From Amphiscolops sp. MND2022 (lineage: Eukaryota): a DNA stretch of 64,000 nucleotides. How positions within the stretch are numbered: position 1 is the stretch's first letter; each line of letters begins with the position of its first letter. This document shows positions 17,855 to 59,053 of the stretch, one piece after another. The DNA lies in the NCBI GenBank assembly GCA_964187785.1, contig OZ076420.1, positions 56,730,001-56,794,000 on the forward strand, in the 5' to 3' direction. The notes below the pieces were generated by a model. The model searched no databases. It had not been told where the DNA came from and saw only the letters and a program-made list of their open reading frames with translations. The translations under genes and the position numbers were made by a program.

Positions 17855-18575
17855 GTATGATTTGTCGTAAGATGGACGGTTAAAATTAGAAGACGACATT
17901 CCATAAGCACAATTTCAAAACTAAACTGTGAAATCGATATCCAGAAGGTTGCACCGAACAGTCAGTTTCTTAATTTTACAACGTTCAAACTAATAATTGG
18001 CTGAAAAAACAGACACGCTGTTGAGTACATTATTAATAGACATGTAAGTTAAAAAACAATCTTAGTTGGATTTCCCGCGCCGCGTGGGAGAAGATCTCTC
18101 TATTTTCCCGCGCCGCGCGGGAAAACAGCTCTTCATTTTAATTTCCTGCGCCGCGCACGGGAAAACAGCCCTTCATTCGAATTTCCCGCGCCGCGCGGGA
18201 AAAAGTTTCTGCCTAGAATTTTAACAAACAATCAACTTAATATTTCCCGCGCCGCGCGGGAAAAAGTTTCTGCCCAGATTTATAACAAAGAATCATATAA
18301 AAAATAGATTTATATTTATATATAAATTTTTTAAAAAAAATTTTTTTATAAAAAAGAATCCGCACCGCGCGGGAAAATGTTTGTGCCTAGATTTTTTAAC
18401 ACACAACCCCAACTGAGCTTTTCCCGCGCCGCGCGGGAAACGTTTGAGCCTGAACTTTCTTACAAACAACTGAATTTTTCCGGCGCGGCGCGGGAAAAAT
18501 TGTAGCTAGATTTTCTAACAAAAAATCCGAATTAAAATTTCTGTATCATACGGAATAACCCATCACCTATTTTTT

Positions 18576-19175
18576 GCCCAACCCTACTGCATAGGGTACC
18601 TCTGTGAGGGGTGATGTGAGGGTCCGGAAAAATTTTTTTTGTCAAAAATTTTTTTGTCTCAAAAGTGCATAAAAACGTTGAAAAAGTTGAAAAAACACGT
18701 TTTTGACGCCAAAATTTTTTGCCCAACCCTACTGCATAGGGTACCCCCTGTGAGGGGTGATGTGAGTGTCCGGAAAAATTTTTTTTGGTCAAAAAATTTT
18801 TTGTCTCAAAATTGCATAAAAACGTTGGAAGAGCTGAAAAAACACGTTCTTGACGCCAAAGTTTTTTTTGCCCAACCCTACTGCATAGGGTACCCCCTGT
18901 GAGGGTCCGGAAAAATTTTTTTTGGTCAAAAATTTTTTTGTCTCAAAATTGCATAAAAACGTTGAAAAAGTTGAAAAAAAAACACGTTTTTGACGCCAAA
19001 AAATTTTTTTGCCCAACCCTACTGCATAGGGTAGCCCCTGTGAGGGGTGATGTGAGGGTCCGGAAAAATTTTTTTGGTTAAAAATTTTTTGTCTCAAAAT
19101 TGCATAAAAACGTTGAAAAAATTGAAAAAACACGTTTTTGACACCAAAAATCTTTTTTGACCAATCCTACTGCTC
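18576..19175. repeat. Minisatellite, about 4 units of 141-149 bp with long A/T tracts
   Basis: gcccaaccctactgcatagggta at 18576, 18721, 18870 and 19011; partial copy at 19159. Confidence 0.95.
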
Positions 19176-41299: not shown

Positions 41300-42050
41300 C
41301 CTATATGCGTTCCTCTGCATGAAATTAAGTCCTCGTCAACGCTTCCCGGCTTGCAGGTCGAGGCTTCTCCAGTCGAAGATTCCCCACTGTGTTCTCCAAC
41401 GGTGCCAGGTTCCTCCGGCCAATAGAAGGCGAAACGTTTAGTTTGCGAAGGAAAAAAGTGAGCGCTGCCTCATCCGGGCAGTCAGGGAGGCTGACACCCG
41501 TTGCTTGTTAGTCGAGCGCCTTTTCGAGACGATAGACACGGCGGAGATCCGCAATAACTTTTGTCAAAGTGACTCCGTCTAGGACAACGGCCTGATAATG
41601 CATGCCTTTGCAATCGGAGGCAATTTTGTGACAATTGTACAGAAAAGTGATCCTGCAGTGATATTGTGGTGTTCCACTTAGTGGGATTTGACAAGAAAAA
41701 AGTCCCGGTTAAGAAACGGTTCTACAGACTCGGAACCCTACACCCTCGACTCTTGAAAGTTACGAACAGGTTCAGTGTCGTGGAGCTGACCCAGGCTGCT
41801 CGTTTCATAGAGACAGTCTGTGAAAAAGCCAGCTACGTTTGAAAGCCCGCAAGCTGAAAGTGTCGATGATACTCTACACGTTTTTCAATCTTCCATTTTT
41901 AGTTGGTAAGTCAACCTTAGTTTGCAAAATTTTTTGAATTGGAAAACCCAAAACGCTTTCCGTAGAAGCCTGGTAGTTTATTGAATATCTATTGGACATC
42001 GAAACTGAGGTAAAAGCGGTGGTTTTCTTCTTTTGTCTTGGTTTAGTTAT
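41300..42050 (+). pseudogene. Gene A copy plus the spacer that also follows gene A at 14250 and 15570
   Basis: aaacggttctacaga...taccctcgactc.tgaa.gt; aaaacgctttccgtagaagcctggtagtt matches 14335 and 15670. Confidence 0.6.
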
Positions 42051-45000
42051 CAGATGATACACAATTTTTTTTATTTTATTTGGCATAAAATTCATGAGCG
42101 CATGATAACAATGTTTGTTTGTAGTCATTTAAGGTCATTTTACTCATCCGATTTCATAATTCTAACATCTTCAATGCAAATATGTGACAAGATTTTTACC
42201 ACTTTTTTTCAAAAAGCAAAGACGGCATGATGTCTTCGCTAGCATAAAAATTGAAGTATACCGAGTTTGTTTTAATCATCACAGATTGCAACACCCGGCT
42301 TTGAATTACCTTTAAGAATCACACAATTGAAAATCCGGTAGCGGAAGAAGGACTGCTTTCAAAACTGACCTCAAAGAATTCAGGATTCCGATCGTTAGGC
42401 GTAATGGTATTCTTGTGACAGAGTCTTCTCTACAACAGGCAGCACCTGACGTTCTTAAAATTTTTAACGAGGGGACAAAGTCAAAAAGTGCAAAGAAAAG
42501 TGCAGTTGAGAACACATCCAGAACGCAAAGTCAAGATGGTGGCAGTGGTTGCGCTAGACAGCAAAATTCGCACAAAACGAAAGTCGACTCAATGGAAAAC
42601 ATTTAGTTCGGTCTAAAATCTGCAAAAAAAGACAAAAGTAATTGCCTCACAGAACTCGAAATCGTAAGAAAGCTGACAGTATTTTTCTGAATCTACCTTT
42701 GATTGTGCATAACACTGATTTATCCAATCACTTTTTTCATCCACATAGTGAGCATGAGTTGTGACCATGGAAAAAATACCAAATAGTTTCTAGGATCCAA
42801 ACCGAATAAAGGGTTTTATCGTGTCGTTAGTTACGTTTTTCTTTCAGGCTCAAAAGATCGACTGTCTCCAGCTATCATAGTTTGGTCGGTATAGTTTGAA
42901 CTGATCAATTGCAAACCCTGATACCAGAAAACACTCTACGAAACCTAATCAAGACTAAAGCAAACCTAGAACTAGATTTTCGCCAAAACTTCTAACATGT
43001 TATTCAGTGAATTAAAACAAGGGCCGAAGTGAAAAAATGTTTTCAAACGAGAAAAGGGACTGCAGAATGAACCAGGGAGCGTTTTGTAGTATTTTTGTAA
43101 CACCATCATAGGTTATTACTGTCTCCAATTGTACGGAGGAAGCGCTGCGGTAAAGGATTGCGACTGTTTGAGGAAACTTTATCTTGTGAGTAATATTCTC
43201 AGATGGACCCGAATGCAACATGAGCACTTTGCGTTCGAAACGCAAATCAATATCATTAATACCATAGTCTCACAACATGTAAGAACGTTTCTGAAAGTCT
43301 GACAGAACGTTGAAATGTTTGCAGCGTTAATTGTACTTCTAATTGGTATCGTAACTGTGAATTTTAGTACTTTCAAGGAATGAAATAAAGAAAGGATTTG
43401 GCATCATTTCTAAATAATGCTGCCCTGCTATGAGTAAAGGAACTATACCTCAATTCTTCGTGTTGAGTTCAACAACAGTCTATGCTGACAGGAGACTTAT
43501 CTTACGAGTTTGCACAAATGTGTCCACTCTAGTGAGATGAACCAGTGGAATCATGGGGAAACCTTGAACTATCACAGCTGCCATCAAACAAACTTAAACT
43601 TGAAATCTGGATTACATTGAAAGCATTAGTCTCCTGACTTCCAAAGAAATAAAGAATAAATTCACACGAAAAACTGCTTCGGAAACGTTTTACGTTACAA
43701 TAAAACATTCATGAAACCAAATCAGTTTCCATCTCTAAACACATAGGTGTAAAAGTTTCCAAATGAAAATAGATATAACCACAGTTGTCGAAAAAGACTT
43801 TCACTTCATTTCCTATCGTACTTCAAAACTCTATGAAAGTATATACTATGGCTTCTGACGTCGATATTGACAACTGCGATCAACAATGTCTCGATCAGAA
43901 CAAACTTTTGAGGAGAACTACTGCCAAATACAATCCACTACAATAGATTTCATGAACAAAACACTTTGTACGAAACCTGTGAACTTCGACATGGCGCATG
44001 ACAAATTTGGACAGTTTTCTTTGTCAAAAACGAGAAAAAATCTTAGACGTGCAGTGTAAAGTCTTTGCAAGCCCTTTTCCTACGCATTCTAGTAAAATCA
44101 ATATGTTCTGTTGAGACAGTACGACGAATCATGCGACTGCGAAATCAACTGGTTTTTCTGTAGACAATTTACAAGAGAGGAAAACATGACAAATATCTTC
44201 GTGGCTGAACTATCAAAAAACATTGACGAACAACTGACACTGGTGTACAAACCTACAAGCTTGCAAAGCGACTCCAGTGGAAAAATCGGACGGCTGCTCT
44301 AGCCTCAACACAAATTCCTACAAAGTCAGAGGGCAACACGTATCTACGTAACAATCGCGTGTATTTTCTCCATCCGATAAATACATCTAATAAGTGATAA
44401 ATCTGATCGGTTTTTGAACTTGTTAATTTTGGTCCCTGTCGTGAACACTTTCATTCGTACTTTCTAATTCCCTTTTGGTTGTGCAAATACGTGATGATAG
44501 TGATTCACAATTGTGTAATAAGACTAACTGATTCGCACTGTTTGCGAATCAAGCGGTCGAATTCTAAACCGTAATTACCAGATCCACATGTAACTATCAG
44601 ATGCACAGTGTAGGTAGTCAAATTCCGCAGAAACGATGTTTGGTGTGATCTAGTCAACTACTATGAGTTCCGATGGTGTAAGCTGGTCGTTTTACAAAGC
44701 TGTGTTAACTAGTGGAACAAAATATCAGTGCGTTTAATGTGTGACAAGTGAAAGAAACGATTCGCGCTCTCATTAGACCGAAATCGTACAAATATGCAGG
44801 AACTAACTAGCAGGATCCTGTTAGTTCGTTTCCAGGATGTTTCTCGTAATGACAGAGGAGAAAATCGTGACTCACCCTATTCGCAGATCCAACTCTCATT
44901 ACTTTAGACGTAAGACGGAATTTTAAAAATCTCAAAAACTATTCTAAGTGAACAACAAAGGAGATGAAATTCATTGCCTCTTGGTTACAATGAATCCAAA

Positions 45001-45399
45001 ATGTTATGAAGTACCTGATATGAGACAAATGAAGTACCTGACAAATGAGCAACAATGTAATAATGTTTGGGTGAATTTTTCAATTAGCTTTTTTTCCCAG
45101 TCAACATAGTGAGAATGGTTGAAACCATGGAGAAAATAGAACTTGTGTCTAGGATTAAAATCCAAATTTGTTTTTTTTTTGTGTTTCCGCTGCGTTTTTG
45201 TTGAGGGTTTCAAAACTAGGAATTCTACAGTCACATTAATTGACCGGGATATTTTGGGCTGATCAGATGCTAAACCTGAAACCGAAAAGCACTTCAGATT
45301 TAGAAAACCTAGTATTTTGTGGTAATACTATTTTGGCGTTTAATCGAGGAGAATAATTCTTGTATTCGAGGAAATATTCTTATTCATTGCGCCACTAGT

Positions 45400-46450
45400 C
45401 ACAAAATAGATATCCTACCTGGCTCCAAGCCGAGAAAATTACCGAATGGCCGCACGCCCTTGCACTACAAGGAAGATTTGCAAGAAAAAACATGCCTTCT
45501 TGGATAAACAACTCATCGAACCCTGTCATAGTCCATACAGCGCACCGGCAATGCTCGTACTGAAAAAAAGTGGCAAGCTACGTTTGGTAATAGATTATAG
45601 ACAATTGAACAGTCAAACGATAAAGTCCTGTTGGCCGATACCGTCGATTGAAGAAATTTTCGACACGCTTGAGGGAAGCGCGTTCTTCTCAACAATCGAT
45701 ATGTCTTTCAAATACCCATGGATGATAAAAGTCTGGATTATACGGCTTTCAGCACGCCATTTGGTTCCTTCAAATGGCTCCGAATGTCAATGGGTCTTTC
45801 GAACAGTCCGCCTACGTTCCAAAGTGTAATGGAAATAGTTCTTCCAAAGTTGATCTGGAACACTGTGGTCCCCTATTTAGACGATTGTATCATCTTTGCG
45901 GCCACACCCGAAGAACATCTCCGTAGGATTCGAGAAGTCCTAGTCCGGTTCCGAGCAGCGAAGCTGAAAATTAATCCTCTGAAATGTGAGTTCTTTAGAA
46001 CAAAAGTACAGTTCCTGGGCATGTCATCAGTAAAGATGGTCTACAGGTGGAACCCGAGAAAATCGCTGCTGTCAAACAGTTCCCAGTTCCGACAATACAA
46101 ACTTATGTCGAATCCTTTCTGGGACTTTGCTCGTATTATCGACGATATGTGAAACATTTTGCCAATATTGCTAGACCACTCCATAAGGCCAGCGAGACGA
46201 GTATCCCATTCAAATGGACACCCGAAGCACAAGAGGCTTTCGACAAGTTGAAGGCCTGCTTAACTACAGTATCAATTTTAGCTTTTCCTTCTATGAAAGC
46301 CGTTTATTCTGTACACCGACGCTAGTTTTTCGGCAATGGGTGCAGTCTCAGCCCAAATTCAAGACGGAAAGGAACGAGCTAGTTGCTATGCCTCCAAGGC
46401 TCTCACAATCTCAAATGAACTACTCAGCAATTAAACGTGAACACCTGCTT
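45400..46450 (+). pseudogene. pol: Gypsy reverse transcriptase and N-terminal half of RNase H
   Basis: SPYSAP..KKSGKLRLVIDYRQLN; TAFSTPFG.F.W.RM.MGL.NSP.TFQ; YLDD; KCEFF..KVQFLG; FLGLCSYYRRY; LYTDAS; YSAIKRE. The second half of RNase H is missing. Confidence 0.95.
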
Positions 46451-46660
46451 TGTTCGTCTCAGAAAAGCACCAACTGGCGGGGATCGCTCGATAAGGGGAG
46501 TGGCCTAATGCAGGTGTTACAATGACATACCGCCCGCGCCGCTCCCCTTCCGGAGGATGTCTTACAACACCCAATTTCCCAGTGTAGGGTGATCAAATCC
46601 AAGCCATCGGAACCCCTAAAACGACAGGAGGTACTCGTAGAAAGGGCAACGGAACCAACG

Positions 46661-47070
46661 AAGTACGCCGAGATAAAGGGAGACTTGTTTGAATCAAAGG
46701 ACTCGATAGCCCATTGTGTCTCCGCGGTTTTCAAAATGAGTTCTGGGATAATGCGGTCTTGCAAACAGAAATACCCAACTGCGTATCCGGGACGAATTCG
46801 CTGTTATGATGTCCCTCTGTGGACGCAGTGGCTACCAGAAACCAAGAGGTATATTTACCACCTCCTGACGAAAAATCATTTTTACCATATCCGACATTTG
46901 CGGCTCTTCGAGCGCCGTTGGAACGTATGCGCGAACATGCCAAAGCAAACGGCGTGTCATCGATTAGCATTCCTCAACTTGGTTGTGGACTCGACAAATT
47001 GGAGTGGCCCTTGGTACGCGACATTATGCAAAAAATTTTTGAAACCTCGGGTGTTTACATCCGTGATCCA
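46661..47070 (+). pseudogene. TARG1/OARD1 (Poa1p-like) macrodomain embedded in pol between RNase H and integrase
   Basis: IKGDLF..SIAHCVS..FKM..GI; YIYHLLTK; PTF..LR..LE.M..H...NGV..IS.PQLGCGLDKLEW..V..I..KIF. One frameshift near 46875. Confidence 0.9.
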
Positions 47071-47099: not shown

Positions 47100-48450
47100 C
47101 GCAATTGACGAAGTGTCCGATACAGAGACCGGTAATCTCACCGAAAACCTCCGCAAAGGACAGGAGGCTGATGAATGGTTACGACTGGTACGCGAGTGCG
47201 TACGACGAGGCCGCGTACTACGAAATAATGACCTAAAGGGTTGTCCCGAGCTCGCTTGGAAACTGTATACCCAATTTCACAGTCTGTACCTCATAAATAA
47301 TGTACTGTGTCAGCGATTTGAACCCATCGGTGGCGATTTACCGTTCCTCCAACAAGTAGTGCCTCCTGCACTGGTAGATGATGTCCTGGTATCTCTACAC
47401 AGTTCAACCACTGGCGGTCACCAACGAGTTGCCAAGCTCCTTGGAAAAGTGAGACAGCGCTTTTGGTGACCCGGTCTCAAAGATTACGTGCAAATTTTGT
47501 GCGCCGTTACGTCGAATGCCAAAAGCGATGTAATCCTCCACAGACCCATCGCCATTCTCTCGTTGAATGGAAGCAAAGCTACAATTTTCAGCACATTGGC
47601 ATCGGTTTCATGGGTCCTCTACTGGAATCAAATGGCAATAAGTTCATTTGTTTTTTTTGGTGACCATTTTAATGAGTCAATGAGTGGTTTTAATGAAAAG
47701 GTATGAGGCAATTCTTTACCGGGTCAGAAAGCAACAACTACGGCCTCGGCTTTAATCGAGCATTGGATTTCCCGATTTGGATGCCCTCACAGTATCCACA
47801 GTATTCAGGGCAGAAATTTCGAATCGCACCTTTACAAAGACTCTGCAACTTTTAGAAATTGAGAAGACAGGGATTTCAGCATTTCATCCGTAGTCTAACG
47901 CAGTGATTGCGCGTAAGAACCGCACTCTGCAAAACATGCTCGCGAATGTGTGGATGAGGATCCATGAAATTGATCGACCAAACTGCCGTACGTTATGATG
48001 GTCTATCGCTCGTCTGTGCATGAATCGACCTGCTTTTCTCCGTAGTTTCTCGTGCAGGGACGGGAATTGGCCCTCCCAATTGACGTTATGTATCCCAACC
48101 CTAATCAGGGACCACTGATGACCCCAGTCGATTTTGTCTACAATCGTAAGAAGGCCTTCCAACGGGCCTTCGAATTAGTTCGCGCTCACCTTAATCATAA
48201 CCAGAAGCGCCGCAATGCATTGTATAATCAAAACATTCTTGGACCCAAATATGAGACAGATCAAAAAGTCTTGTTGCATAACCTAGCGTTCTCTGTCGAC
48301 CAAACATCAAAGCTTTCATCTCCGTGGCGCGGGCCCTACATCATTCTAGATTGTCTGAATGATGTCACGTACAAAATTCGCCAACTTACAACTAACACGG
48401 AATCAGTCGTACACTATGACCGTTTGAAGCCTTTCTTTGAAACACCAGAT
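47100..48450 (+). pseudogene. pol: Gypsy integrase with zinc finger remnant and GPY/F module
   Basis: LHSSTTGGH...RQRFW; IGIGFMGP; RFGCP.SIHSIQGRNFES; NRTL; GRELALPID; KLSSPWRGPY; VVHYDRLKPF. Confidence 0.92.
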
Positions 48451-49035: not shown

Positions 49036-51259
49036 ATGCGTCCTCATGCCATTTGGGTTGTGTGTCTTATTATTATAGACATTCCTCTCTCGTGTGATCA
49101 GGTTCAATTCAGTCCTCATCTCGATGATAACCTGGAACAACCTGTCTTCGAAAAGGGTGCTGCTTTTGTATTCAAATATCAAGCAGTTACCTCTGAAAGT
49201 GAGAGTAAGGTTCGTGTATTTTCCCCTTTTCCTCAGATGTCTGCCATCAACCTCACTCGTGCCCTCTCCGATGTAGAGGCCTTTAAAACAAAACCCCGTG
49301 GCATCGGCTCCTTGTACGTTAACAAACGTTGCGAATTCACGGACTTTAACAACACTTACCCGTCAATCTAATACCTCCTCCTCTAGCAACTAGAAACGCG
49401 GGTCAGCTTTTTGCAGATGGAACTAGCAGCTGCTCAAGAGGAGGAAGTCACCTTGATGGAAGTGGCAAAGTCATTTATTCCTCCTACTCCTAATAAAGAA
49501 TGTGAACCTAAGCGCCAACGTCGTGCTAATGGGGCTATCGCTGCAATAGCAGCTGGAGCGGGAATGATTCTGGGTGAACCCGTCAAGGAAGCAGCGTGCA
49601 CCGCGCTCTCTATCTTTAATCTATGTCGCAATGATGATGCCCTGTCAAAAGATGTAGATCAGTCATGACTAAACAGACGACAATAATTGAAACACTGCAA
49701 CGTGTACAAAGTCGAAATGATAAAAACTTCTTCTTACTGGGAAATGAAATCAGGAACACCCAAGAGAGCGTGAAGAATCTCAGAGATAGTGTGGGACAAC
49801 GCTTTCAGCACATTGAATATTACTTAGATACTTGATGGGAAGAAGTCTAGATTGCGATAAAGTAATAGTAGGACATATTAACCTTTTGCAATATATTCGT
49901 AACTATATTTATCATCTGTGTACCCTGTATACTCATTTAGAAGTCATCCCGCGCCGCTTTTTACGCCTATCGTAATTGGCTCTTCACGACAATTTCATCT
50001 TTAGCTGGTGGCTACATTACACCACAGTTTCTGCTTCCGCAACAAATTACTGAAATTTTTTAAAGAGTTGACCGAAGACGAAGTTCTGCGGGGAACTAAT
50101 ATGTCTCCTGCATTCCGCCCTGGTTTTGAGGCAATATACTAAGAGATTCAAATAGTTCTCGAGATAACTCTGATACCTCGTGGCATCTCAGTGATACTGG
50201 GGATCCCGATGAATTCAACATCGTCAACATTTGATATCACTGGACCCACTGTATCAGCCCAATAACGACCAGAAAACGGCTTCTCTTTTCAGTTTCACAA
50301 ATCCTTTCCTCGCAGTCTCTACTGCCAATAGTAGATTTGCAGAGCTAGGAGCTAATAAGCTGCAACAATATTCGTGTAACAACAGAATAAAACTTTGCAG
50401 GAAGGGCATTTCTACTACCACGGATGAAACCTTGTTATTCCTGGGCTCTCTATTCTATAAATATGATATGCCAGCCCTGCGCAGTTGCAAAGTTAAATCC
50501 GTTCTGTTGCCGGATGCTCCTCAAGCCTTCTATTTGGCCGAAGAGTTGTACCACATCAGCTCTAGAGCCCCTTTTCTTCAGATAAAGAACGATAGTCGAG
50601 CTAAAGGCCTGTCTATCTCTACCATAAATTGTCAGGCTTGTGTGATGCGCCCCAGTTGTTCTAGTATTATTTCATTTATTCAAGGGGACCTCGTTTTGTA
50701 CCCAGATATGGATTTTTGTGGAAAGAATACCAAACCTTCTCTGACATCCATTGAATTAACTCCTTCACCTAATAAGGTCTTCTCGCATGTTCCATCAATT
50801 AGTACCGCTGATTTTCATGCTTATTCTCTCCGGGAAGCACGTCAACCCGTCCTAAGAATTTTACGCCTGGAACTAGCTGAGCTACCAGACGACGAACACA
50901 TGACTGAGGAAACCCTCGACAAGTTGACGCAACCAATTGCTACCTACTACTCAGCAGTCTCGCCAGCCACGTCAGCAGCCTTGGAATCTTATCTGCCCAT
51001 TCGAACAGCTATTCTTATGTCGACCCTGTCGATTACAATGTCACTGTTAACATTTTCGATAAGCCTCACGCACTTCCCACGACAGTGGCGCCGCCTCTTT
51101 ACTCATCCACAGAAGTTCTTTCGTGGTCATTCAGGACGCTTCATCTACATTGTCGACGACCAATGCTATGACTACGAACCAATTGATCCAATTTTTGCGT
51201 ATCTATGGAGCTACTATGGAGCTTCAAGCAATTATTTCCCTGGCACGAGAAACAATTAA
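49036..51259 (+). pseudogene. env: Envelope glycoprotein, class I fusion-protein-like
   Basis: Signal peptide; furin site RQRR (49513-49524) followed by ANGAIAAIAAGAGMILG; heptad region; Cys-rich region; C-terminal TM ILMSTLSITMSLLTFSISL. A few stops and frameshifts. Confidence 0.85.
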
Positions 51260-54200
51260 ACAACCTATCGCTCCTAACTCGAACTACACTACACCTAAAG
51301 CACCTTGTCTCCCCCACGTGTTTACCCGGATGTGTCAGCCCGTCAGTTTTCGGAAACAATCACTTAAATTTAACCTTCTTTCTGTCTTTCTATCAATGTC
51401 ATCATTTGTTTTATTTTCAGCAAACTAGAAACACTCAACTCAGTTGATGAAATAGGATAGGCTCTAACCTTGTTCGAAATCTCCCAACGCTTGCGTTGGT
51501 GTTAGTCTCAACACTTTCTAGTGTGTAGCCCATTCTCTTGTATACTTAATTTGAGGACGTCCCTCAACCTTGCTCACCTATTGTGTTGATCATCCAGTTA
51601 GTATGTATCTTTCTAGATCATCACGAGTATCCTAGTCTGTATTCCCTGTAGCTAGTGTAGTTAATAAGGTCAACGTCTCCTAGTTGTTGAGTATAACAAC
51701 TAGTGAACTTAATTTCCTCACTCTCGAGGTGACGTCCGTGTCGTCCGATGTCAACCCACAACGTCAAACAGTCATGATCCAAACGATTAACTCCAATGAA
51801 CGTCCTCTTGGTAAAAATGCTACCGAACTATGGTTGCCTGCCCCGTCCAAATCGACTATTGCAGCCGATGTGAACTTCGACCCAGTCCCTATGGAGTGCA
51901 ACTGTCCATCAGCAGTGCCACCCCCAGTGCACCCGGATATGGTTGATGCGACTGTGGAGGCCTCCTTAGGGCAGAACGAGAGTCTTGAGTTACTGGCAGA
52001 AGACTTCAGCTCAATACAAGAGCTCAAAAATCAACTTGAAGAAGCTCAGAAGGCGTCTGATGTCACGTTTTCAGTTTCACAAATCCTTTCCTTGCAGTCT
52101 CTACTGCCAATAGTAGATTTGCAGAGCTAGGAGCTAATAAGCTGCAACAATATTCGTGTAACAACAGAATAAAACATTGCAGGAAGGGCATTTCTACTAC
52201 CACGGATGAAACCTTGTTATTCCTGGGCTCTCTATTCTATAAATATGATATGCCAGCCCTGCGCAGTTGCAAAGTTAAATCCGTTCTGTTGCCGGATGCT
52301 CCTCAAGCCTTCTATTTGGCCGAAGAGTTGTACCACATCAGCTCTAGAGCCCCTTTTCTTCAGATAAAGAACGATAGTCGAGCTAAAGGCCTGTCAATCT
52401 CTACCATAAATTGTCAGGCTTGTGTGATGCGCCCCAGTTGTTCTAGTATTATTTCATTTATTCAAGGGGACCTCGTTTTGTACCCAGATATGGATTTTTG
52501 TGGAAAGAATACCAAACCTTCTCTGACATCCATTGAATTAACTCCTTCACCTAATAAGGTCTTCTCGCATGTTCCATCAATTAGTACCGCTGATTTTCAT
52601 GCTTATTCTCTCCGGGAAGCACGTCAACCCGTCCTAAGAATTTTACGCCTGGAACTAGCTGAGCTACCAGACGACGAACACATGACTGAGGAAACCCTCG
52701 ACAAGTTGACGCAACCAATTGCTACCTACTACTCAGCAGTCTCGCCAGCCACGTCAGCAGCCTTGGAATCTTATCTGCCCATTCGAACAGCTATTCTTAT
52801 GTCGACCCTGTCGATTACAATGTCACTGTTAACATTTTCGATAAGCTTCACGCACTTCCCACGACAGTGGCGCCGCCTCTTTACTCATCCACAGAAGTTC
52901 TTTCGTGGTCATTCAGGACGCTTCATCTACATTGTCGACGACCAATGCTATGACTACGAACCAATTGATCCAATTTTTGCGTATCTATGGAGCTACTATG
53001 GAGCTTCAAGCAATTATTTCCCTGGCACGAGAAACAATTAAACAACCTATCGCTCCTAACTCGAACTACACTACACCTAAAGCACCTTGTCTCCCCCACG
53101 TGTTTACCCGGATGTGTCAGCCCGTCAGTTTTCGGAAACAATCACTTAAATTTAACCTTCTTTCTGTCTTTCTATCAATGTCATCATTTGTTTTATTTTC
53201 AGCAAACTAGAAACACTCAACTCAGTTGATGAAATAGGATAGGCTCTAACTTTGTTCGAAATCTCCCAACGCTTGCGTTGGTGTTAGTCTCAACACTTTC
53301 TAGTGTGTAGCCCATTCTCTTGTATACTTAATTTGAGGACGTCCCTCAACCTTGCTCACCTATTGTGTTGATCATCCAGTTAGTATGTATCTTTCTAGAT
53401 CATCACGAGTATCCTAGTCTGTATTCCCTGTAGCTAGTGTAGTTAATAAGGTCAACGTCTCCTAGTTGTTGAGTATAACAACTAGTGAACTTAATTTCCT
53501 CACTCTCGAGGTGACGTCCGTGTCGTCCGATGTCAACCCACAACGTCAAACAGTCATGATCCAAACGATTAACTCCAATGAACGTCCTCTTGGTAAAAAT
53601 GCTACCGAACTATGGTTGCCTGCCCCGTCCAAATCGACTATTGCAGCCGATGTGAACTTCCACCCAGTCCCTATGGAGTGCAACTGTCCATCAGCAGTGC
53701 CACCCCCAGTGCACCCGGATATGGTTGATGCGACTGTGGAGGCCTCCTTAGGGCAGAACGAGAGTCTTGAGTTACTGGCAGAAGACTTCAGCTCAATACA
53801 AGAGCTCAAAAATCAACTTGAAGAAGCTCAGAAGGCGTCTGATGTCACGTTTTCAGTTTCACAAGTCCTTTCCTTGCAGTCTCCACTGCCAATAGTAGAT
53901 TTGCAGAGCTAGGAGCTAATAAGCTGCAACAATATTCGTGTAACAACAGAATAAAACTTTGCAGGAAGGGCTTTTCTACTACCACGGATGAAACCTTGTT
54001 ATTCCTGGGCTCTCTATTCTATAACTATGATATGCCAGCCCTGCGCAGTTGCAAAGTTAAATCCGTTCTGTTGCCGGATGCTCCTCAAGCCTTCTATTTG
54101 GCCGTAGATTTGTACCACATCAGCTCTAGAGCCCCTTTTCTTCAGATAAAGAACGATAGTCGAGCTAAAGGCCTGTCTATCTCTACCATAATTTGTCAGG

Positions 54201-55290
54201 CTTGTGTGATGCGCCCCAGTTGTTCTAGTATTATTTCATTTATTCAAGGGGACCTCGTTTTGTACCCAGATATGGATTTTTGTGGAAAGAATACCAAACC
54301 TTCTCTGACATCCATTGAATTAACTCCTTCACCTAATAAGGTCTTCTCGCATGTCCCATCAATTAGTACCGCTGATTTTCATGCTTATTCTCTCCGGGAA
54401 GCACGTCAACCCGTCCTAAGAATTTTACGCCTGGAACTAGCTGAGCTACCAGACGACGAACACATGACTGAGGAAACCCTCGACAAGTTGACGCAACCAA
54501 TTGCTACCTACTACTCAGCAGTCTCGCCAGCCACGTCAGCAGCCTTGGAATCTTATCTGCCCATTCGAACAGCTATTCTTATGTCGACCCTGTTGATTAC
54601 AATGTCACTGTTAACATTTTCGATAAGCTTCACGCACTTCCGACGACAGTGGCGCCGCCTCTTTACTCATCCACAGAAGTTCTTTCGTGGTCATTCAGGA
54701 CGCTTCATCTACATTGTCGACAACCAATGCTATGACTACGAACCAATTGATCCAATTTTTGCGTATCTATGGAGCTACTATGGAGCTTCAAGCAATTATT
54801 TCCCTGGCACGAGAAACAATTAAATAACCTATCGCTCCTAACTCGAACTACACTACACCTAAAGCACCTTGTCTCCCCCACGTGTTTACCCGGATGTGTC
54901 AGCCCGTCAGTTTTCGGAAACAACCACTTAAATTTAACCTTCTTTCTGTCTTTCTATCAATGTCATCATTTGTTTTATTTTCAGCAAACTAGAAACACTC
55001 AACTCAGTTGATGAAATAGGATAGGCTCTAACTTTGTTCGAAATCTCCCAACGCTTGCGTTGGTGTTAGTCTCAACACTTTCTAGTGTGTAGCCCATTCT
55101 CTTGTATACTTAATTTGAGGACGTCCCTCAACCTTGCTCACCTATTGTGTTGATCATCCAGTTAGTATGTATCTTTCTAGATCATCACGAGTATCCTAGT
55201 CTGTATTCCCTGTAGCTACTGTAGTTAATAAGGTCAACGTCTCCTAGTTGTTGAGTATAACAACTAGTGAACTTAATTTCCTCACTCTAG
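50286..55290. repeat. 1782-bp tandem triplication (env 3' half, spacer, fragment of the post-env ORF)
   Basis: ttttcagtttcacaa at 50286, 52068 and 53850 (offsets 1782, 1782); scattered SNPs between copies. Confidence 0.95.
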
Positions 55291-55472
55291 AGGTATCCTA
55301 GTTGTGTCACAACCTCAGCTAGTGTAGTGAAACAAAAGTCCCAGTTCCCCAGTTGTATCTCCAACGCAACTGGTGTGTCAACGCCGAAAGTCACTCGTAC
55401 GCTCTATCAGCCCAACGTCTCGAGCGTTATTCAAATACATCTTCTCAACTATATCTAAACACATGCACCCTT

Positions 55473-56491
55473 ATGGCAGGCGTTTTTAATGATCTGTTTT
55501 GTTACAGGTACAAATTTGACGTCGAGGTCGTGCCTCCAGCTCCATTGCTGCTCTCGGATGGGCGGGTACACTATCTGGCCCGTGCTCACACCGTCCGTAT
55601 GTTAGATGTAATGGACTACCGTGTCATCCGATGTAACCCACAACGCCAAACAGTCATGATCCAAACGATTAACTCCAATGAACGTCCTCTTGGTAAAAAT
55701 GCTACCGAACTATGGTTGCCTGCCCCGTCCAAATCGACTATTGCAGCCGATTTGAACTTCGATCCAGTCCCTATGGAGTGCAACTGTCCATCACCAGTGC
55801 CACCCCCAGTGCACCCGGATATGGTTGATGCGACTGTGGAGGCCTCCTTAGGGCAGGACGAGAGTCTTGAGTTACTGGCAGAAGAGTTCAGCTCAGTACA
55901 AGAGCTCAAAAATCAACTTGAAGAAGCTCAGAAGGCGTCTGAAGTCACGTTCAAACTGATGCAAGCAAGTGTAGAGATAGGTAGTCAACGGGCGGAGCGC
56001 ATTACGGCTCTGTACCAAGAAATAGGCGGTTTGAAATCCCGATTGAAAACCCTTACGGAAGAAAACGAGTCGCTACTCCACCACTCATTGAAGCAGAGTG
56101 ATGAACTAAGCACCTTACGACTGGAAACAGCGGCCGCCAGCAATCATCAGTTAACCGCCAAAATGCTTTGTTACCAGATGTCTACCTACCGCCCTCAGTG
56201 GACTACGTTGACAACAACCTCGTGTTCTATCTCCTGTGTAGACCGCCAACCTCAACAACTGACGAATTGAAGGAAAATGCCCGCCACTTGCTGCGGTTGA
56301 TCCACCCGGACAAAAACCCCACTGTCTCCCCAGCGGTCGCCAAACTGGTGCAGACGATCACAGAAGCTCGTAATATACTGATAGACAAGACTCTCAACAG
56401 GATTTATCAGTGTTGTGGGATTCGAGGTGTCCGACGTGCGCAAAAGGGCCTAAGGACTTGCATGGACTGCGACCCGCATGTCCGCGAATAG
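55473..56491 (+). pseudogene. Post-env accessory ORF: Pro-rich region, coiled coil, then DnaJ (J) domain; one frameshift near 56160
   Basis: ELKNQLEEAQK..LKSRLKTLTEENESL coiled coil. TTDELKENARHLLRLIHPDKNP...ITEARNIL.D...R.Y..G follows the J-domain helix pattern, with HPD at 56303-56311. C-terminal CxxC. Confidence 0.8.
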
Positions 56492-56522
56492 CTGTCCTCT
56501 TAGTTGCGTGGACGCAACCTTC

Positions 56523-56536
56523 AAGAGAGGGGGTGG
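56523..56536 (+). promoter_or_regulatory. Polypurine tract
   Basis: aagagagggggtgg immediately before TGTAGCG; preceded by hairpin gttgcg-tgga-cgcaac. Confidence 0.85.
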
Positions 56537-56629
56537 TGTAGCGAGCGAGGCACCGCTATAGGAGGAGCGAAAGGCGAATAAAAGAGCAGATGCAAACTGG
56601 GAAATTAAATTGTTAAACAGCTCGCTATT
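56537..56629 (+). repeat. 3' LTR remnant (very short or internally deleted)
   Basis: Starts TGTAGCGAG, has AATAAA near 56577, and ends ctcgcta (inverse of the start) at 56621-56627. Confidence 0.6.
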
Positions 56630-58147: not shown

Positions 58148-59053
58148 TCAAGCAATATGAGAAGCAGCTGCCAGTTTGGGAATCTGTGACTTCAAGGATC
58201 CCTTCCGTTTGTACTCAAACGACTCCCGCTTCAACTGCTGGCTGAGTGACTCTGAGCTTTTGGCCTTGGCTGCGTTGTCCAGAGATGCCGGAATCTCTGC
58301 TGGCTCCTTGCTGTCTCTGGGTCTGGGAATTCCAGACTTCGCAATCATTTTTGGAATTCCGCTGGCAGAATTGGATGATTTCAAATAGTAGCCACAGTTG
58401 CTGGATGCTGCATTGCCACAACTTTCTTGGTTTTCTCCGGGCTTGTTGGCTAGACTGGCGTTTTGTGACTTGATAACAGTAGTTGAACTTTGGGGAGAAG
58501 GTGCAACTGATAAAGGCGCGAAAGCTTTTGTGGGTGACTTTTTCTCAACGGGAGAATCGAAGGAATTCCCAGAAGGAGGTAATTTGGGAATTTTACTGTG
58601 CCGCCTTTCTGGAATTCGGGAAACTGGTGGACTTTTTCCGGGAATTTCAGGAGTTTTGTTGGCACTACGATTAACATTCCTATCATTATTGTTGTTGTTG
58701 TTTTCACTTGGTTCTGATTGGGTTTCGGAATGAATTCCAGAGGGCTTTTTATCAATTGTCGATGATGTAACACCATTTGGGGCATCTTTTGTAACTTCTC
58801 CAGAGGATTTCTGAGATGAATGAGGAGATGAATGTTTGTAGTCGCACTGATTTTCGTGATTTGAAGTAACATGATTTGAGTTTATTTGATGATGATCAGA
58901 TTTGGTTTCAAGGGCGGGTTGTGATTGTATCAAAATCTGCTCCTCTCCACATGCACCGTTCTGTTCTATGTTTTTCTCTCCTAGTAAAAGCGACACTCCG
59001 TTCGTTAGTTGGACGTTAGTTTCATCCACACAATTCACCGCAAGGTCATTGTC
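58148..59053 (-). CDS. Terminal coding exon of a host gene; disordered Ser/Pro/Lys/Asn-rich tail with five SxIP motifs (EB1-binding +TIP candidate)
   Basis: Open frame from acceptor (ctttcatcatttcttttAG on minus, exon start 59053) to stop at 58148; SRIP, SKIP, SGIP, SGIP, SQIP. Confidence 0.8.
   Translation of the reverse strand, partial: DNDLAVNCVDETNVQLTNGVSLLLGEKNIEQNGACGEEQILIQSQPALETKSDHHQINSNHVTSNHENQCDYKHSSPHSSQKSSGEVTKDAPNGVTSSTIDKKPSGIHSETQSEPSENNNNNNDRNVNRSANKTPEIPGKSPPVSRIPERRHSKIPKLPPSGNSFDSPVEKKSPTKAFAPLSVAPSPQSSTTVIKSQNASLANKPGENQESCGNAASSNCGYYLKSSNSASGIPKMIAKSGIPRPRDSKEPAEIPASLDNAAKAKSSESLSQQLKRESFEYKRKGSLKSQIPKLAAASHIA

Follow-up and report, generated by a model that had tools for sequence, protein, structure and literature searches.

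Accessory genes of retroelements and J-domains of viruses

Invertebrate env-carrying Ty3/gypsy elements have been described as three-gene elements, and the particles of retroelements are thought to need host chaperones. The closest described relatives of the element treated here are the errantiviruses in the wide sense, which share with it the order of the pol domains, an F-type env, a polypurine tract (PPT), an LTR starting with TG, and the occurrence of multiple near-identical copies (PMC13524379), whereas the element treated here has a further gene between env and the PPT. The terms DnaJ, J-domain, and chaperone have no occurrence in the main text of that study, nor have DnaJ and PF00226 in seven supplementary files, and according to a 2012 review Drosophila errantiviruses have not been shown to possess accessory genes (PMC3383448). 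Captured extra open reading frames (ORFs) located 3′ of pol are known from other LTR retrotransposons, such as the ORF3s of bdelloids and Burro of planarians (PMC5408684; PMC6431247). According to excerpts of these two papers, they are family-specific captured enzymes or adaptors, typically placed on separate spliced messages, as is the case for the expression of the bdelloid ORF3s (PMC5408684), and they carry GDSL lipase, DEDDy exonuclease, transmembrane or coiled-coil ORFs, and apoptosis and ubiquitin domains (PMC5408684; PMC6431247). Neither DnaJ nor chaperone was found among the terms searched in these excerpts, and in the element treated here the extra gene comes on top of env.

J-domains encoded by a mobile genome are likewise known from viruses, although their carriers are not reverse-transcribing elements. 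As described in the parts of the respective sources that were available, polyomavirus T antigens combine a J-domain having an HPDKGG loop with an LxCxE motif (PMC11720896), the baculovirus gene bjdp encodes a J-domain protein (PMC5794183), and J-domains are found in 11 RNA virus families of Kitrinoviricota and Pisuviricota (bioRxiv 10.1101/2022.02.15.480533). Together with the DnaJs of giant viruses, the J-domains of these viruses are the better precedents. No published report of a J-protein gene in an LTR retroelement was found in the open literature, with repeat databases and subscription journals lying outside the search and an unpublicised annotation perhaps in existence. Viral J-domains and captured ORFs of LTR elements are each known, and a J-protein gene in an LTR retroelement is new within the literature searched.

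Structure of the element

The stretch of DNA analysed here (the window, 64 kb) harbors what its coding remnants indicate to be a decayed, 5′-truncated, env-carrying Ty3/gypsy retroelement, with the following features outside the accessory gene.

45410-46420, + strand: pol remnant with reverse transcriptase and the start of RNase H, several frame changes (PF00078, E 1.4e-21; PF17919/PF17917)
46650-47062, + strand: TARG1/OARD1-like macrodomain over two frames (phmmer to OARD1/C6orf130 structures, E 7.7e-12 and 0.0047)
47350-48450, + strand: integrase remnant with zinc-binding N-terminus, broken core, and SH3-like C-terminus (PF17921, E 1.4e-8; PF22938, E 3.6e-10)
49036-51364, + strand: env, coding for an F-type fusion glycoprotein and interrupted by stops and frame changes (the natural 777-aa homolog P0091 maps here)
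50286-55294, + strand: tandem repeat with a period of 1782 bp (self-BLAST, 98.8-99.3% identity)
51736-52069 and 53518-53851, + strand: extra pieces of the 5′ half of the accessory gene (97% identity to 55619-55951)
54929-55472, + strand: non-coding spacer from env to the accessory gene, CTAG-rich (CTAG count)
56503-56518, + strand: 16-bp palindrome ahead of the PPT (sequence)
56523-56536, + strand: PPT (sequence), starting 31 nt past the stop of the accessory gene
56537-56629, + strand: candidate 3′ LTR, 3′ end uncertain (TG start, AATAAA at 56577)

The order of reverse transcriptase, RNase H, and integrase is that of Ty3/gypsy, and all parts of pol are broken. The copy begins inside pol, cut 5′ of reverse transcriptase; gag, protease, PBS, and 5′ LTR were not found, and no Pfam match was obtained in the three forward frames of 42000-45500. 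The macrodomain, which in pol separates RNase H from integrase, is a second captured host-type domain that might possibly counter ADP-ribosylation, and the titles and abstracts returned by a literature search contain no report of a macrodomain in such a pol. The env possesses a basic cleavage site, a hydrophobic peptide, and a C-terminal hydrophobic segment, and weakly matches the solved fusion proteins 9w4c/9w4d (E 0.04). Of 29 env homologs, four match PF12259 (Baculo_F) at E ≤ 0.05, the lowest value being 3.4e-8, and the other 25 fall below the profile. Within the protein collections searched, the env family is very large, with clusters of 141, 109, and 188 members (examples are P0096, P0118, and P0124). 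In the 1782-bp unit, the 3′ part of env is joined through the spacer to 334 bp from the 5′ half of the accessory gene. The repeat, by which the 3′ part of env is triplicated, arose either through recent rearrangement or as an artefact of assembly. A 130-aa ORF resulting from this repeat is also present in the protein collection (P0084).

At the 3′ end, the candidate LTR has a 10-bp terminal inverted repeat with 2 mismatches. No second LTR copy was detected by self-BLAST or motif, and RNA structure at the PPT/LTR was no better than in shuffles (z -0.79). Five residues encoded at the palindrome and its neighbours recur in the read-through tail of the distant P0047, and P0080 has a similar stretch, hinting that this region may be a conserved pre-PPT signal.

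The accessory gene and its reading frames

The gene between env and the PPT consists of two parts in different frames, with the following features.

55473-56195, + strand: 5′ part (77% identity to P0001 residues 1-238)
55506-55507, + strand: candidate 3′ splice site, a T-rich AG just inside the ORF start, below the pyrimidine threshold used
about 55545-55721, + strand: predicted SH3-like beta-barrel, within the 5′ part
between barrel and coiled coil, + strand: Pro/Cys linker, within the 5′ part (sequence)
about 55860-56180, + strand: coiled coil, within the 5′ part
56189-56491, + strand: 3′ part with J-domain and Cys tail, in a frame differing from that of the 5′ part
56219-56419, + strand: J-domain (PF00226; J fold by structure match)
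56264-56320 and 56357-56419, + strand: J-domain motifs quoted in the preliminary description, located in the window
56303-56311, + strand: HPD, intact in the window copy
56411-56419 (CCG) and 56459-56470 (CxxC), + strand: Cys tail (sequence)

A preliminary description of this DNA, made by eye, had proposed a J-domain with an intact HPD in this gene, and the profile and fold checks suggested with it were both run with positive results and no refutation; indeed, the 128-aa frame at 56105-56491 matches PF00226 with 31.5 bits (E 1.9e-7; curated cut-off 27.8), and the motifs quoted lie within 56264-56419. It had also treated 55473-56491 as one ORF, and this has to be corrected. The frame opened by the ATG, 55473-56270, encodes the barrel and the coiled coil, and natural homologs mapped onto the window place a frame switch near 56189-56195, separating the coiled-coil frame from the J-domain frame; past the switch, the former runs out of register to 56270. 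The 3′ part is 83% identical to P0001 residues 237-339, and its stop comes a few codons before that of most homologs. Frameshifted as it is, the window copy is probably dead or non-functional. Programmed frameshifting as the normal mode of expression was rejected because the overlap has no slippery heptamer and the natural copies are single-frame. LxCxE is absent from both frames, as had been noted by eye. In a six-frame scan with a profile made from the accessory-gene family itself, the J-like pieces of the window amounted to 1 of 1655 (117.7 bits, the next being 9.5), a score whose height is partly by construction because of the origin of the profile, and no other DNAJ exon was detected within the 64 kb.

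Association of the gene with the element

The accessory gene is the fourth gene of the element, located between env and the PPT, and is not a stray host exon. Its stop at 56491 is followed after 31 nt by the purine tract from 56523, close to the 30 bp or so first estimated. Read-through tails of P0018 and P0005, which are found on other contigs, translate the window DNA past the gene and through the PPT, and the tail of P0018 continues 42 nt into the LTR, matching window DNA to 56578. Since other copies show the same PPT/LTR junction and the gene travels with its cognate env, we assign it to the element, in agreement with its original placement.

Linkage to env was assessed by comparing the lengths of 48 J-gene contigs with those of 161 env contigs (up to 15 listed members for each cluster). 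At least 20 of the 48 pair with an env-bearing contig among the members listed, one env cluster per J cluster, a shared length being taken as a stand-in for contig identity, which for large contigs does not imply adjacency. Among the members listed, pairing by J cluster was 9/12, 4/11, 2/3, 1/1, and 4/5, as compared with 0/3 for the closest broken copies and 0/13 for scattered representatives; 28 of the 48 are left without an env partner among the 161. Five paired contigs are 7.2-12.8 kb long, roughly the length of one element. Adjacency of gene and env in other copies thus rests on equal contig sizes together with the read-through tails. None of seven other env clusters (92 listed members) has a paired J-gene contig, so that the gene may be missing from many relatives, or may be present in them and masked by cluster representatives. 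In four matched pairs, identity was 39-80% for the accessory gene and 74-85% for env. The gene is multi-copy, env-linked, and found in diverged families as well; absence from other copies and an adjacent host DNAJ exon, both raised at the outset as possible objections, were looked for, and the gene recurs with no such exon beside it. Near-complete J-gene proteins are also recorded on contigs of 1.5-2.5 kb, which have no room for env (P0004, P0021, P0035, P0045, and P0062), and these records may stem from subgenomic transcripts or may just be fragments.

Spacer and expression

In the interval 54824-55472, which includes the spacer, CTAG/YTAGT occurs 9 times against 3.2 expected, a count found in 2 of 500 shuffles with five patterns tried, and the CTAG-rich spacer is possibly a protein-binding or packaging signal. 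Nine homologs start with dissimilar F/C/Y-rich residues and then have a common C-[FY]-R. The AG at 55506-55507 is considered as a candidate 3′ splice site because translation across an acceptor would yield such dissimilar N-termini. From these sequence features, the accessory gene is probably expressed from its own subgenomic RNA, which is perhaps spliced.

Architecture and fold of the intact homologs

A search with the upstream frame yielded five relatives, the best being P0001, a single-frame protein of 340 aa that includes the J-domain and whose cluster has 12 members on 12 contigs with 93-99% identity to it. The J-frame search gave 45 representatives at 50% clustering, of which 13 were classed as cellular and 32, on account of a common tail and flanks, as element-like. 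Single-frame proteins of 305-381 aa occur naturally and consist of an SH3-like beta-barrel, a linker, a coiled coil of ~110 aa, the J-domain, and a Cys tail. A coiled coil before the J-domain had been noticed earlier and is indeed present, its length being about 110 residues (helix 125-233 of P0001) and not ~90; the N-terminal barrel ahead of it had been missed. PF00226 was found in 22 of 26 homologs at E ≤ 0.05, with scores of up to 59 bits, and seven exceed the curated cut-off, P0001 itself scoring slightly below it (26.6 against 27.8 bits).

The AlphaFold model of P0001, built from 27 alignment rows, has a pLDDT of 83.4 and a pTM of 0.46, and places a beta-barrel at residues 20-80, followed by a disordered linker, the single helix, and the J-domain, where pLDDT exceeds 90 across most of the domain. 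In the model, the latter has the helical J fold and places HPD in the loop that joins helix II to helix III; it superimposes on solved J-domains with Z 9.8-10.2 and rmsd 1.8-2.4 over 71-74 residues. Modelled alone, the barrel reaches a pLDDT of 85.8 and is predicted to adopt an SH3-like fold. It ties between the KOW domains of Spt5/NusG and Tudor domains (VIA-align Z 7.0-7.5), with chromo-like folds also matched, and the domain-only search gave no structure match at Z ≥ 8, which puts the similarity at background level. Comparison of the barrel with viral structures gave nothing at E ≤ 0.001, and the ESM Atlas contained no usable match to the barrel or to an env piece. Derivation of the barrel as a copy of the C-terminal domain of the element's own integrase is unsupported, since BLASTP gave no alignment.

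The Cys tail follows the pattern C[GD]-x8-16-CxxC in 20 of 32 divergent representatives. The protein lacks a hydrophobic segment, hydropathy reaching at most 0.7 as compared with 1.8 in env. The features of classes A and B are absent, in that the J-domain is C-terminal and no DnaJ_C or zinc-finger family was matched, and the accessory protein is classified, by sequence and predicted fold, as a soluble class C J-domain protein. It falls outside the T-antigen, DNAJC5, and class A/B groups. Compared with the polyomavirus T antigens, it has HPDKNP in place of HPDKGG, carries its J-domain at the C-terminus, and lacks LxCxE, a motif present in 5 of 14 homologs at three unrelated positions, none of them conserved. 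DNAJC5 (cysteine string protein) provides the top solved J-domain by both profile and Foldseek and likewise has cysteines after the J-domain, but these form a cysteine string, whereas only CC and CxxC are found here, and its J-domain is N-terminal while that of the accessory protein is placed behind barrel and coiled coil. In a Foldseek search, giant-virus DnaJs came first and a baculovirus Bjdp had rank 13, and these viral matches are confined to the J-domain (TM about 0.2 of the query). The cellular matches to the J frame also cover the J-domain only, at 33-41% identity, and the homolog searches returned no cellular protein with the barrel-coiled coil-J architecture.

Conservation and origin of the J-domain

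Of 30 forms with at least 300 aa, many of which are near-identical copies, 29 retain HPDK. An alignment of 32 divergent representatives shows 23 with an intact HPD, and H, P, and D are conserved at 88, 91, and 88%, as compared with 44% for the median column. The nine representatives without HPD comprise eight shorter than 250 aa and the full-length P0004, which has HLD. Between homologs, open frames of 280-380 aa are maintained at 20-50% identity. Because HPD or HPDK is kept across full-length and divergent forms, the accessory gene appears to be under selection. K directly follows HPD in 26 of the 32 representatives and K/R stands seven residues before it in 23, whereas the Tyr eight residues before HPD survives in 4. 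Helix II contains a median of 2 K/R with a net charge of +1, the values for 13 cellular J-domains being 5 and +5. Given this weakly basic helix II and the loss of most of the Tyr, stimulation of Hsp70 may be weak or partner-specific.

The tree of J-domains that had been proposed against DNAJ genes was calculated from 58 rows and 76 columns (39 element-like and 19 cellular). It groups 34 of the 39 element-like J-domains, including that of the window, in one branch with support 99/93, the element branch being separated from cellular J-domains by a long branch; the other five sit among the 19 cellular rows. Under the AU test a single origin stays tenable (p-AU 0.36). By profile, the top solved J-domain is that of DNAJC5 (56.1 bits), followed by DNAJB8 (51.6) and DNAJA1 (47.5), and mouse DNAJC5 is the sole Foldseek match of the J-domain at E ≤ 0.001. 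DNAJC5 is thus a candidate donor by score that the tree does not confirm, as the rows resembling DNAJC5 do not group as sister to the element branch.

Proposed function and alternatives

Helix II, HPD, and helix III form the Hsp70 interface of J-proteins, which stimulates ATP hydrolysis, and other domains pick the client, as summarised in the accessible text of PMC10410713. Reasoning from how J-proteins work, the coiled coil would oligomerise the accessory protein, a client would be bound through the barrel or the Cys tail, and the J-domain would recruit host cytosolic Hsp70 and trigger ATP hydrolysis, upon which Hsp70 would remodel the client. We consider it probable that the protein is an accessory class C J-protein recruiting host cytosolic Hsp70, and that its client is most likely the Gag/RNA particle of the element itself, during assembly, release, or uncoating. 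The earlier suggestion of a retrotransposon-encoded co-chaperone is favored to the extent that a J-domain established by profile and fold is borne by the element and recurs in copies and diverged families, and the weakly basic helix II calls for caution. In our ranking, action on the element's own particle comes before action on a host defence complex, and the latter before a decoy.

Retroviral accessory genes occur 3′ of env, and the position of the present gene resembles theirs. This is in keeping with an active co-chaperone of Hsp70 directed against a defence or silencing complex of the host (e.g., small-RNA or chromatin machinery), on which the barrel would dock and which Hsp70 would dismantle, as would be the fold of the barrel, like that of Tudor, KOW, and chromo-type reader domains, and the faster divergence of the accessory gene than of env, which fits conflict with the host as well as it fits work on the particle. 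Action of T antigen on pRB-E2F, described in the available part of PMC11720896, is a precedent. We nevertheless regard a defence target as rather unlikely, the barrel having its fold similarity at background level with no Z ≥ 8, and LxCxE being missing in the window copy and conserved nowhere in 14 homologs. More doubtful still is that the J-domain serves as a decoy or scaffold with weak or no Hsp70 binding, HPD being kept for structure or for sequestering Hsp70 and the protein acting mainly as a coiled-coil adaptor. Loss of the basic surface of helix II and of the conserved Tyr, the long branch leading away from cellular J-domains, and HLD in full-length P0004 would all be explained in this way, but HPD, though located in a loop, is among the five most conserved columns, and the basic residues after it and at -7 are mostly retained (26/32 and 23/32). 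That a host DNAJ cDNA or exon was merely caught in the window copy, as neutral cargo or a chance neighbour playing no part in the element, is very improbable and already largely refuted: it would suit the frameshift of the window copy and the host DNAJC5 being the nearest solved J-domain, yet the searches gave no cellular protein of such architecture, at 20-50% identity the frames have stayed open over 280-380 aa, the gene is linked to its cognate env, and the 64 kb contain no other DNAJ exon.

A broader and tentative scenario, which we hold to be possible but not likely, is that of an old lineage of infectious, env-carrying retrotransposons that has become complex and retrovirus-like and is equipped with a host-control kit, in which a dedicated Hsp70 co-chaperone with a Tudor/KOW-like barrel would act against silencing or restriction machinery, or on the element's own capsid, alongside a TARG1-like macrodomain in pol reversing ADP-ribosylation. 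Within the literature searched, it would then be the first case of a reverse-transcribing element with a J-protein as accessory gene. Under the preferred reading, that of a co-chaperone for the element's own particle, a conserved fourth gene recruiting Hsp70 would show that env-carrying Ty3/gypsy elements of invertebrates can evolve accessory genes like complex retroviruses, and would name the host machine on which they depend. The chaperone step would become directly testable, because the client of the element's own co-chaperone marks the step that needs Hsp70. The J-protein family, for its part, would gain a new architecture and a new source, the retroelements.

Other features of the window

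A decayed Polinton/Maverick-like element with internal duplications occupies about 19000-40300 and retains a protein-primed PolB (PF03175), an A32-like ATPase (PF04665), and an adenovirus-type protease (PF00770). At the left edge of this region, short AT-rich and GC-rich repeat arrays with periods of about 33-64 and 145 bp are found at 18076-19155. Downstream of the retroelement, on the minus strand at 58148-59053, lies a low-complexity open frame of 301 codons, rich in Ser, Pro, and Asn and without a Pfam match, which is probably a host exon.
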